Sequence record: NZ_AP019754.1
Source of the DNA: a plasmid
DNA length: 64,000 nucleotides
Strand: one strand, 5' to 3'
Positions 50,688 through 59,291 of this stretch are shown here, in pieces (the first letter of the stretch is position 1; the number at the start of each line of letters is the position of its first letter). The translations under genes and the position numbers were made by a program. The notes below the pieces were generated by a model. The model saw nothing but the letters and a program-made list of their open reading frames with translations. It searched no databases and was not told the origin of the DNA.

Positions 50688-53600
50688 ATGTCGCATGAGA
50701 GCAAGACTATGAAAATAAATCCTGGGGCATGGTTTCGCCGCGCCCGTATCATGACAAAAGCGCCAGGGCGCGCATCGTTTTCTTCCAATGACCCTATGGG
50801 GGAAAACACTCCGCGCCCGGAGCTGTTCTCAACGCCTCAGCTTGAGCGTTATGGTCAAAAGCTGGCGCATACGCATAAATTGTCGCCGGACAAGATGCCG
50901 TACTACCTGCTAAAACGATTAAGTGATAACGAAGCCGTTATTACACAAAACTGTTACACCCTTAACGCCGGTAAAAAAACCAGCATTATGCCCGCTGGGG
51001 AGTGGTTGCTGGACAACTACTACCTGATTGAGGAGCAAATTCGCAACGTCCGCCAGCACTTGCCGACCAGCTTTGGCAAAGGTCTTCCTTCACTCGCGTC
51101 TCCGCACCCTTGTCCGCGTATCTATGATATTGCTACCGAGGCGGTTGCGCATGGTGACGGACGCTGGGACACCGCCAGTCTGACCAGCTACATCGGCGCC
51201 TACCAGCAGGTCACGCCGCTGACGTTAGGGGAAGTCTGGGCGTTGCCCGGTATGTTGCGACTGGCGCTGATTGAAAATCTGCGTCGGGTCAGTATTGAGG
51301 TGGTTCAGGCTCAGCAGGAACGCAGCCTTGCTGACAGCTGGATAACGCGGATGACCGACTGCGCCGAACATGCGCCAGCTGACCTCATTCTGGTGATCGC
51401 CGACATGGCGCGTTCCCGGCCGCCACTGAGCAGTGCCTTTGTCGCGGAAATGGTTCGTCGTCTGCACGGGCAGGGGAATGCGCTGGCATTACCCTTGGGC
51501 TGGGTAGAACAACGCCTTGCCGAGCAAGGCCTCACAACCGAGTTACTGATCCATCGCTTCAACCAACAGCTTGCGGCCAGTCAACTTTCCGTCAGCAACA
51601 GTATTGCCGGGTTACGCCTGCTCAATGAAACCAACTGGGCTGATTTCGCCGAGAACATTAGTGTGGTTGAGCAGACGTTACGTCGCGATCCGGCGGGCAT
51701 ATATTCCTGTATGCATTTTGATACCCGCGATCATTATCGCCATGTGATTGAGATTCTGGCCCGGGAAAGTCAGCTCAGTGAGCCCGACGTGGCAAGCCGC
51801 ATACTGGCGTTGTCAGCAACAACCCAACCGGGCATGCCCTCTCATCACATTGGATATTATCTGATGGGAGAAGGGCGGCGTCAGTTAGATCACCATTTGT
51901 CGGTGGCGAGCTCTGGCCTCAAACGCTTACGGCACAGTCTCAACAGATATCCTCTGTTATCCTGGCTTGGGAGCATGAGCCTGTTAACCACGGCGGCCAC
52001 CGCCGCAATATTGTATGACACAGCGAGTCTGGGCATGGCCTGGTGGTTGTTACTGCTGGCTTTACCTTTGATTGTGGCGTTGAGTCAGTTGGTCAGCGAT
52101 ATACTCAGTGAAGCGACGACCCGCTTTCGGACTCCCCGACCGCTGCCACGAATGGACTTTTCTGACGGGATTCCGGTGACATCCTCCACGTTGGTGGCGA
52201 TCCCCTGCATGCTGACGAGTCACGCCGGCTTCAGCACGCTCCTCACAAGCCTTGAAGTGTGCTGGCTTGGCAACCAGGACGATAACCTCTGTTTCGCGCT
52301 TCTTACCGATTTTGCTGACGCGGCGACTGAAAGTACGGATGAACAACGCGCACTGTTTAGTCAGGCGATGTCAGAAATGCACCGGCTTAACCTGCGCTAT
52401 CCTTGCCGCCATCAGCGCTTTTATTTGCTCCACCGCTCGCCTGAATGGAATGCATCGCAGGGGATCTGGATGGGTTATGAACGCAAACGGGGCAAGCTGG
52501 CGTTGCTGAACAGCTGGTTACGTCATCCAGACACGCAATTTTCCAGCGTTGCGGGCATGCCCGCGAACCGCTTACCCGGACAGATTAAGTATGTCATCAC
52601 GCTGGACAGCGACACGCTCCTGCCACGTGATACCGCGCATAAGCTAGTCGCAACGATGGCGCATCCGTTGAACAAGCCGGAATACGATCCGCGATGTCAG
52701 CGGGTCGTCAAAGGATACGGTATTTTACAACCGGGGCTGGCAGAAGAGATGCCCCGTAACGGTCAGGGCCGCTATGCCGCGATGCGCAGCAGCGTACCGG
52801 GTAATAACCCTTATTCCATGATGTCTTCAGATATCTATCAGGATCTGTTTGAAGAAGGCTCCTTCGTCGGCAAGGGAATTTACGACGTGGATATTTTTGT
52901 CCAGGCCACGGCCAACACCTGCCCGGAAAATCTGGTGCTCAGTCACGATCTTCTGGAAGGATGCTATGCCCGCGCCGGGCTGCTGAGCGAGGTCTTACTC
53001 TACGAGCAGTACCCGAACAACTATCTGTCCGACGTCGCACGCCGTACGCGCTGGATCCGTGGCGACTGGCAACTGCTTAACTGGCTTAAGCTGCGGGTCC
53101 GAAAAGCGGATGGGACGCGGGATAAAAACCCATTGTCGGCGCTCTCTCGCTGGAAGCTGTTTGATAACCTGCGCCGCAGCCTGGTCGCCCCCGCATTACT
53201 GGTGCTGCAGTTTAGCGCGCTGCTGTGGGTGCCGAATCCGGGATACTGGCTGGGCGTTCTGGCCCTGGTCTGGCTGCTGCCTGCTGCGCTCTGTATCCTT
53301 ATCGATCTTGCCAACAAGCCGCATCGTCGTCCTCTGAGGCAACATCTGGTGCTGGTTACGGCGGGGGCACTGAAGCGACTTTCCCGGATCGGACTCAATT
53401 TTATTTTATTACCCCATGAGGCGGGCTATTCGCTGTATGCGATCGCCGTGACGCTCTGGCGCCTTGGCATCAGCCAGCGCAACCTGACGCAATGGTCCAG
53501 CCACAGTCCGGACAGCCTTCAGTCCCAACTTTCTGCCTTTCGTTTTTATCGGGTAATGTGGCTGAATGTGGCTTGTGGTGCAGCACTCACGCTTCTGACG

Positions 53601-59291: not shown

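Follow-up and report, generated by a model that had tools for sequence, protein, structure and literature searches.

The longest open reading frame by far of the region studied, at positions 50688-59291 of a 64-kb plasmid stretch from record NZ_AP019754.1 (hereafter, the window), is read here, with a probability of about 0.82, as a functional cyclic β-1,2-glucan synthase gene (cgs, otherwise ndvB or chvB) of the Pantoea ananatis LPP-1 megaplasmid, the product of which would work, by homology, in the manner of the Agrobacterium tumefaciens Cgs (AtCgs). An initial annotation of the window had already proposed a Cgs/NdvB/ChvB-type enzyme, and this reading is right because the gene evolves with a ratio of nonsynonymous to synonymous substitution rates (dN/dS) of ~0.09, in a protein that aligns end to end with the Agrobacterium Cgs and retains its functional residues. 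The observation behind that annotation was thus borne out, and its interpretation was upheld only in part, with the replicon, the functions ascribed to some of the domains, and the novelty of the gene having to be revised.

The core claim, that of a Cgs gene in Enterobacterales, holds but is not new, having been published on the basis of sequence similarity. De Maayer et al. reported in 2012 that NdvB is encoded by LPP-1 in group II P. ananatis and in P. vagans C9-1 (PMC3505739), which was restated in a pan-genome paper in 2014 (PMC4070556). Homologues in Klebsiella 342 (KPK_4954) and on plasmid pENT638-1 of Enterobacter sp. 638 had been noted in 2008 (PMC2453333) and 2010 (PMC2869309), respectively. 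The P. ananatis LPP-1 ndvB of this literature is the same gene as the cgs of the window, and the other reported enteric ndvB genes display 74-87% protein identity over the first 800 amino acids (aa) together with a common ynfU-leader-cgs arrangement. In their passages concerned with the homologue, these four papers deal with sequence similarity only and make no mention of ynfU, the leader, a cold-shock island, a missing exporter, or a product. With plasmid NdvB/Cgs homologues of Pantoea and of plant-associated Klebsiella and Enterobacter in print between 2008 and 2014, the gene itself changes nothing; what is new is the ynfU-leader-cgs module, its conserved leader, the cold-shock/lpxP island, and the absence of an exporter in the plasmids searched. 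The leader and the missing exporter sharpen the question of whether Enterobacterales make cyclic β-1,2-glucan beside their OpgGH glucans, the answer to which would inform beyond Pantoea, given the conjugative plasmids that carry the gene.

Domain architecture and functional residues

The uninterrupted 8.6-kb frame described in the initial annotation (plus strand, 2867 aa, ATG start) was confirmed. Its start codon is likely to be the ATG at 50709, which would shorten the product to 2860 aa: about half of the related loci in the alignments have ACG or ACA in place of the upstream ATG (50688), all of them keep the ATG at 50709, this second position is the start chosen by RefSeq and other gene callers, and the 2860-aa product is identical to RefSeq WP_265166135.1 of P. 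ananatis. An exact protein look-up retrieved the 2860-aa form but not the 2867-aa form, because gene callers begin at Met8. Residue numbers used throughout count from the ATG at 50688.

Comparisons with two of the characterised enzymes named alongside the initial annotation supported the assignment. A HMMER search against the cryo-EM structure of the A. tumefaciens enzyme (8RF0/8RF9) gave one collinear match of 1960 bits, running from 67 to 2839 in the query and from 51 to 2812 in AtCgs 8RF0, and BLASTP against Sinorhizobium meliloti NdvB (SmNdvB) showed 36% identity over 2845 aa, distributed as 29% in the N-terminal domain (NTD), 42% in the GT84 domain, 40% in the cyclase domain, and 38% in the GH94 part. 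The product is therefore a single polypeptide of the Cgs size class (~2800-2900 aa), collinear with the solved Cgs through all domains. In place of the layout proposed at first, namely an N-terminal transmembrane (TM) region followed by GT84 and GH94, the order is a cytoplasmic NTD, two predicted TM helices, GT84, four predicted TM helices, a GH189 cyclase domain (CY), and GH94 with an inserted Rossmann-like (RFL) subdomain, which is the same order as in AtCgs/ChvB (8RF0, 8RF9; PMC10901819). Kyte-Doolittle windows of at least 1.6 were found at residues 445-474 (peak 2.2), 830-850, 851-877, 956-976, and 977-1000, with the expected first TM helix (~421-443) falling under this threshold; their positions agree with the AtCgs alignment, and the TM-like segments fit a 2 + 4 arrangement flanking the glycosyltransferase domain, the first segment being weaker.

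Among the Pfam models, GH94_b-supersand (PF06165) matched twice (E=2e-158), Glyco_hydro_94 (PF17167) matched at residues 2370-2794 (E=8e-120), and Glycoamylase matched at 1332-1520, and no NCBIfam model matched the protein. As Pfam and NCBIfam are without a GT84 model (and Pfam likewise without one for GH189), membership of GT84 was shown by alignment to the solved structure. The Pfam search foreseen in the initial annotation thus returned GH94 as predicted, and the GT84 half of the prediction was secured through the AtCgs alignment with its catalytic residues. Since Pfam sees GH94 and Glycoamylase alone in these proteins and NCBIfam nothing, the Cgs family bears uninformative names in RefSeq, such as “GH94 protein” or “glycoside hydrolase family 94 protein”, “glucoamylase family protein”, and “GH36-type glycosyl hydrolase domain-containing protein”. 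Taken literally, these names and domain matches would describe a mainly degradative enzyme, be it a β-1,2-glucan/cellobiose-type phosphorylase or a glucoamylase. We regard this as the most improbable of all the readings weighed here, given that the names reflect the missing GT84 and GH189 profile models, that residues 476-829 align with the GT84 domain of AtCgs with the UDP-binding residues, the catalytic residues, and the primer tyrosine kept, and that the predicted membrane topology and full Cgs collinearity are unlike those of a soluble phosphorylase. AtCgs function, moreover, tolerates the loss of the GH94 catalytic residue (PMC10901819). Of the two roles that the initial annotation had assigned to GH94, chain-length control stands, and cyclisation is instead performed by the central GH189 domain (PMC10834661, PMC10901819).

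The CY domain of the Pantoea protein matches the cyclisation domain of the Thermoanaerobacter italicus CGS (TiCGS, 8WY1) at E=6e-129 and AtCgs residues 997-1525 at E=3e-124. The likeness to TiCGS is confined to this domain, as only the isolated domain of that Gram-positive enzyme was characterised (PMC10834661). Functionally tested residues were taken from the two structure papers of 2024 (PMC10901819, PMC10834661) and then located in the alignments, and all of those reported for AtCgs and TiCGS are conserved in the Pantoea protein (Table 1). As judged from the alignment, the GT84 active-site set is kept in full, including the UDP-coordinating aspartates, the DxD motif (D640-S-D642), the catalytic base, and the RW motif; the motif quoted in the initial annotation, ITLDSDTLLPRD, was found and contains both D640 and D642 (DSD).

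By analogy with the characterised enzymes, Tyr709 of the inner-membrane Cgs would be self-glucosylated from UDP-glucose, GT84 would extend a linear β-1,2-glucan at the cytoplasmic face, the C-terminal GH94 phosphorylase would trim the chain length, and GH189 (nucleophile E1420, acid/base E1334) would free a ring of ~17-25 glucoses via intramolecular transglycosylation. Proteoliposomes containing purified AtCgs alone yield cyclic glucan (PMC10901819). Such a product would add to the OpgGH glucans and not replace them because Pantoea also has mdoGH, which are fitness genes in Pantoea sp. MT58 (PMC11467524). OpgG/OpgH (MdoGH) resemble Cgs in producing β-1,2-linked glucans from UDP-glucose at the inner membrane; the proteins are, however, unrelated (GT2 for OpgH and GH186 for OpgG), their linear, branched product is translocated by OpgH itself. 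The Pseudomonas aeruginosa “NdvB” is a cyclic β-1,3-glucan synthase that shares with Cgs only its name and a cyclic glucan product; it has a GT2 + GH17 architecture and another linkage, and the protein of the window contains no such Pfam domains. The literature under “ndvB” mixes the Cgs-type enzymes with that of P. aeruginosa.

The ynfU-leader-cgs module

The gene directly preceding the leader, ynfU, was identified by NCBIfam NF038384 (E=1.5e-17, 62.9 bits against a cut-off of 36) and its product is identical across 220 Pantoea contigs. Every Enterobacterales locus of the ynfU-cgs clade has this gene upstream of cgs, and it is missing from the 74 loci that fall outside the clade as well as from the clade of Serratia proteamaculans and Kacie_13, the plasmid copies of which (62% aa identity) have neither ynfU nor the leader and, lacking the latter, could not be used to extend the leader alignment. 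The link between ynfU and cgs is new to the literature. The initial annotation had advised a synteny comparison across Pantoea and Erwinia; between different hosts, only cgs and ~360 bp upstream of it are common, with the flanks differing. In Enterobacterales, cgs belongs to a compact, plasmid-carried mobile module of ynfU, the ~100-nt conserved leader, and cgs, in which the leader is probably a structured 5′ untranslated region (UTR) governing the expression of cgs.

The Enterobacteriaceae have the module within a larger conserved island, with two cold-shock protein genes (csp and a cspF-like gene) on its upstream side, in the order hypothetical gene, csp, cspF, ynfU, cgs, hypothetical gene, second ynfU paralogue, hypothetical gene, and lpxP; the order csp, cspF, ynfU, cgs, ynfU2, lpxP was seen in Escherichia coli, Leclercia, Enterobacter, Salmonella, and Kosakonia. 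This content suggests a low-temperature or environmental adaptation island. Conjugative plasmids of the IncF and IncHI2 types carry the island, in many cases close to an H-NS gene, and lpxP encodes the cold-induced palmitoleoyltransferase; the second ynfU paralogue, 3′ of cgs, is distant in sequence. At the Pantoea locus, the csp, cspF, and lpxP neighbours are gone and only ynfU-cgs remains beside an IS30 remnant.

Plasmid copies of cgs were found in Klebsiella, Enterobacter, Escherichia, Salmonella, Kosakonia, Lelliottia, Erwinia, Duffyella, and Pantoea, many of the plasmids being conjugative, and 11 of the 5,426 complete E. coli genomes carry the gene, seven of them at full length. It rides conjugative IncF/IncHI2 plasmids in human and food isolates of E. 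coli, Salmonella, and Klebsiella, where the RefSeq names conceal its identity. The horizontal acquisition put forward in the initial annotation is favoured as regards mobility, the gene being plasmid-borne, patchy in distribution, shared with ynfU alone across differing contexts, and adjoined by the IS30 remnant. Composition gave no signal of transfer: the GC content of cgs and its GC content at third codon positions (0.62, against 0.51-0.65 in the neighbours) lie inside the spread of the neighbouring genes, and composition was rejected as evidence for transfer. With relatives ranked by one genome per species, the closest (77-79% aa identity) belong to Raoultella, Leclercia, Enterobacter, and other Enterobacteriaceae, and the next (~50%) to Betaproteobacteria, Xanthomonadales, Pseudomonas, Bacteroidota, and others, with the α-proteobacterial enzymes being 40-41% identical to the Pantoea Cgs. 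In an unbootstrapped neighbour-joining tree, the enteric sequences form one long-branched clade apart from the S. meliloti branch, such that SmNdvB and the Pantoea Cgs stand on different deep branches.

Within the module, conservation is highest in the leader, at a mean pairwise identity of 0.96-0.97, compared with 0.816 (standard deviation 0.056, maximum 0.94) for 60-nt windows of the cgs coding sequence and ~0.7 for ynfU. It was found solely directly upstream of cgs, in 46 of 72,556 plasmids, 7 of 5,426 E. coli genomes, and 98 metagenome stretches; where the downstream sequence of the metagenome stretches was readable, 86 of 92 enter a Cgs-like N-terminus. RNAalifold predicted a 13-bp long-range helix (helix 1) around two small invariant hairpins, with 99.1% of the helix 1 cells paired over 51 distinct sequences. 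The pair 50614/50668 occurs as UG (36), AU (6), CG (5), and UA (4) with no mismatch, and the other changes in helix 1 are from A-U to G-U, the use of G-U pairs indicating an RNA of the plus strand. Both the covariation score and the double-change count of helix 1 lay above all 500 shuffles, in a sample of related sequences in which alignment columns 40-69 were fixed by the search pattern and essentially one pair gives the signal. A structured 5′ UTR is the best reading of the leader, held with moderate confidence on comparative grounds, and it is put forward as a candidate new cis-regulatory RNA and as a concrete handle on when cgs is switched on.

Several other identities for the leader were tried and set aside. 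It matched none of the 4227 Rfam covariance models, the best in 50250-50900 having E=0.7 and lying far under the gathering score, and no frame showed a coding-like substitution pattern. A 12-codon upstream open reading frame (50625-50663) is cut short at its third codon by a stop in the P. vagans clade and has lost 1 nt in one metagenome variant, and for a hairpin sequestering the Shine-Dalgarno sequence (helix 4, 50679-50695), the substitutions give no consistent support. A candidate extended -10 element, TGTTATACC (TATACT in most relatives), is suggested by partial conservation in the alignments, and consensus promoter and terminator scans around cgs found nothing over the shuffled expectation, the candidate -10 site included.

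Selection, export, and the fate of the predicted glucan

Relative to the Raoultella and E. coli plasmid copies, the dN/dS of cgs is 0.09-0.10 overall and 0.05-0.17 per domain, at a dS of 1.4-1.8 with synonymous sites near saturation; even the NTD, 29% identical to that of SmNdvB, shows 0.05-0.06. All eight P. ananatis contigs examined have an intact copy at this locus.

A number of observations nonetheless weigh against the assignment of a functional, canonical cgs. In P. ananatis R100, the frame stops near aa 2251 and the gene table of the plasmid does not list the gene, the chromosomal copy of the probiotic E. coli G3/10 is annotated as frameshifted (stretch L081, 12103-20684), and only the first ~2 kb of cgs was matched in NZ_CP054909.1, where the gene is apparently broken, so it is dispensable. 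The identity to characterised α-proteobacterial enzymes is 36-41%, which, taken together with the separate deep branch in the neighbour-joining tree, means that ring size or linkage details could differ. The literature searched gave no glucan product, mutant phenotype, or biochemical or genetic data for any enterobacterial Cgs. Neither the window nor the enterobacterial flanks examined contained a homologue of the exporter NdvA/ChvA/Cgt or of the modifying enzymes Cgm/OpgC, a search with S. meliloti OpgC included, and tblastn of the NdvA membrane domain against the PLSDB plasmids (E<=1e-5) yielded eight matches, all α-proteobacterial and none on an enterobacterial plasmid, the LPP-1 records included. 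The membrane domain alone was used in this search because full-length tblastn was swamped by generic ABC ATPases. As for the leader, its fold is not unusually stable (z=-0.06 on the plus strand, -0.47 on the minus strand), and its structure rests on one clearly covarying pair and wobble changes among related sequences.

Gene loss of this kind could be taken to mean that cgs is a decaying plasmid passenger in P. ananatis, with little or no transcription and no physiological function, and a P. ananatis genome-wide association study does list cgs in dissociated accessory gene pairs (PMC9933511). This is very improbable, as the 8.6-kb frame is intact in the window as well as in the eight other contigs, dN/dS stays at 0.07-0.10 with the within-species comparison included, every catalytic residue is conserved, and the leader evolves far slower than synonymous sites. 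The gene has been lost repeatedly and is dispensable, yet it is under clear purifying selection where it is retained.

A more serious alternative concerns the location of the product. In characterised systems, all Cgs active sites are cytoplasmic, and the ring is exported by the ATP-binding cassette (ABC) transporter Cgt/ChvA/NdvA prior to modification by Cgm/OpgC. In S. meliloti, an OpgC-family gene and the ndvA exporter follow ndvB within ~3 kb, and the window has no homologue of either. Likewise, compared with its ~40% identical AtCgs counterpart, the Pantoea gene is plasmid-borne, preceded by ynfU and the leader, and accompanied by no chvA partner in the sequences searched. The host-interaction role suggested in the initial annotation presumes a periplasmic or secreted glucan, and since no exporter gene was found in the window or the plasmids, it is too early to speak of a periplasmic or host-directed factor.

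The enzyme might accordingly be active and its glucan no periplasmic or secreted host factor at all, remaining in the cytoplasm or leaving by another route and protecting the cell from cold or osmotic stress. When E. coli is given the Brucella Cgs but no Cgt, the glucan is retained in the cell, Cgt being required for secretion (PMC11071196), which, along with the missing NdvA and OpgC/Cgm homologues and the location of the Enterobacteriaceae module in a cold-shock/lpxP island, lends this alternative some weight. Set against it, the P. ananatis chromosome, lying outside the search, may encode an exporter, and the Pantoea locus is without cold-shock neighbours. Missing linkage between cgs and an exporter is also normal, since only 2 of 80 cgs loci of other phyla have an ABC half-transporter within 10 kb; neither is of the ChvA type, their scores against ChvA/NdvA being far under the cut-offs and both looking MsbA- or HlyB-like. 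On balance, we consider a non-secreted glucan unlikely, although by a smaller measure than the degradative or passenger readings. A broader version, and a slightly less probable one, would make the enterobacterial cgs the cargo of a mobile stress module, switched post-transcriptionally by its leader, with a glucan that is intracellular or non-canonically exported and with no part as a rhizobial-style virulence gene. The preferred reading remains that of a functional Cgs working as in A. tumefaciens.

The LPP-1 replicon and neighbouring genes

The window does not derive from an enterobacterial chromosome, as the initial annotation had it, and is instead part of the LPP-1 megaplasmid (“large universal Pantoea plasmid”) of P. 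ananatis; the Pantoea/Erwinia-like host was correctly recognised, being a Pantoea. The 16-kb stretch around cgs matches the 331-kb plasmid NZ_CP014208.1 of P. ananatis R100 over 100% of its length at 99.3% identity, and seven other P. ananatis plasmids (270-340 kb) match it as far as the cgs stop codon. The remainder of the window includes the budR-budA-alsS-budC butanediol locus, the arnBCADTEF operon, a resistance-nodulation-division pump, and chemoreceptor genes, each of them annotated on NZ_CP014208.1. The positions of these and of the features described above are collected in Table 1.

Table 1. Features of the window and of related loci. Positions refer to the window unless another stretch is named.
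Feature	Position	Strand	Remarks
Butanediol operon (budA, alsS, budC, LysR regulator)	1628-4904		
arnBCADTEF lipid A modification operon	38867-46300		Complete
Methyl-accepting chemotaxis protein (MCP) gene 1	46362-48290	-	
Secreted γ-subclass AroQ chorismate mutase gene	48860-49399	+	NCBIfam NF005965, E=2e-64; just upstream of module
IS30-family transposase remnant	49828..50084	-	C-terminal ~65 codons in two frames; NCBIfam NF033563
ynfU, 52-aa CxxC...CxxC zinc-binding (zinc-ribbon) small protein	50393..50551	+	NCBIfam NF038384
Candidate extended -10 element	50582..50590	+	Suggested by partial conservation in alignments
cgs leader, non-coding, candidate structured 5′ UTR	50606..50708	+	
Predicted helix 1, 5′ arm	50606..50620	+	RNAalifold
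Predicted helix 1, 3′ arm	50662..50676	+	RNAalifold
cgs (ndvB/chvB-type) coding sequence, likely start	50709..59291	+	2860 aa + stop; open frame from 50688
NTD, cytoplasmic, aa 1-420	50688..51947	+	Aligns with AtCgs NTD
Predicted TM helices 1-2, aa ~421-475	51948..52112	+	Hydropathy; aligned with AtCgs TM region
GT84 glycosyltransferase domain, aa ~476-829	52113..53174	+	AtCgs alignment
Predicted TM helices 3-6, aa ~830-1000	53175..53687	+	Hydropathy
Cyclase/β-1,2-glucanotransferase (CY, GH189), aa ~1001-1565	53688..55382	+	8WY1 and AtCgs matches
GH94 phosphorylase region, aa ~1566-2867	55383..59288	+	Two supersandwich repeats and inserted Rossmann-like subdomain; Pfam
GT84 residues	D541, R599, D640, D642		AtCgs D527, R586, D624, D626
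GT84 residues	D754, R788-W789, R791		AtCgs D739, R773-W774, R776
Primer tyrosine, covalent glucan primer	Y709 (in GNNPYS)		AtCgs Y694 (in GIDPYV); IF1-homology loop
Cyclase residues	S1122, D1125		AtCgs S1101, D1104
Cyclase acid/base	E1334		TiCGS E1356 (AtCgs E1300)
Cyclase residue	E1378		TiCGS E1400
Cyclase nucleophile	E1420		TiCGS E1442
Cyclase residues	H1514-H1515		TiCGS H1536-H1537
GH94 residues	D2421, D2555		AtCgs D2393, D2528; catalytic aspartate included
90-aa open reading frame	59430-59702	-	No family match; also in R100
MCP gene 2	61026-62942	+	
R100 cgs copy	Stretch L095 (NZ_CP014208.1) 21665-28531		Interrupted near codon 2251
ynfU and second ynfU in Enterobacteriaceae	Stretches L081/L082 11777-11947 and 21032-21268		
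Cold-shock island	Stretches L081, L082, L001, L003, L004 (~8-21 kb); L104, L105		

The surroundings of cgs were described fairly well in the initial annotation. Its AT-rich flanks are present, with a GC content of 0.38-0.46 at 48.0-50.5 kb and 0.41-0.46 at 59.0-61.0 kb compared with 0.55-0.58 within cgs, and so is its IS30 remnant, a C-terminal transposase fragment recognised by NF033563 (transpos_IS30) at E=2e-14 for 49828-50016 (model 225-267 of 267) and at E=1e-3 for 49926-50084; a Pfam search of the remnant gave no match. Two MCP genes do flank the locus as stated, and, at 58% identity over their full length, they are diverged paralogues and not the outcome of a recent duplication.

Between the bud and arn operons lie a tyrosine phenol-lyase gene and a sialidase-containing sugar-acid cluster. 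The secreted chorismate mutase encoded upstream of ynfU belongs to a protein class of plant-associated and pathogenic bacteria. Synteny with most P. ananatis LPP-1 plasmids stops at ~59317, directly past the cgs stop codon, at a strain-variable junction, and the AT-rich stretch downstream (59292-61025) and the second MCP gene are common to the window and R100 only.

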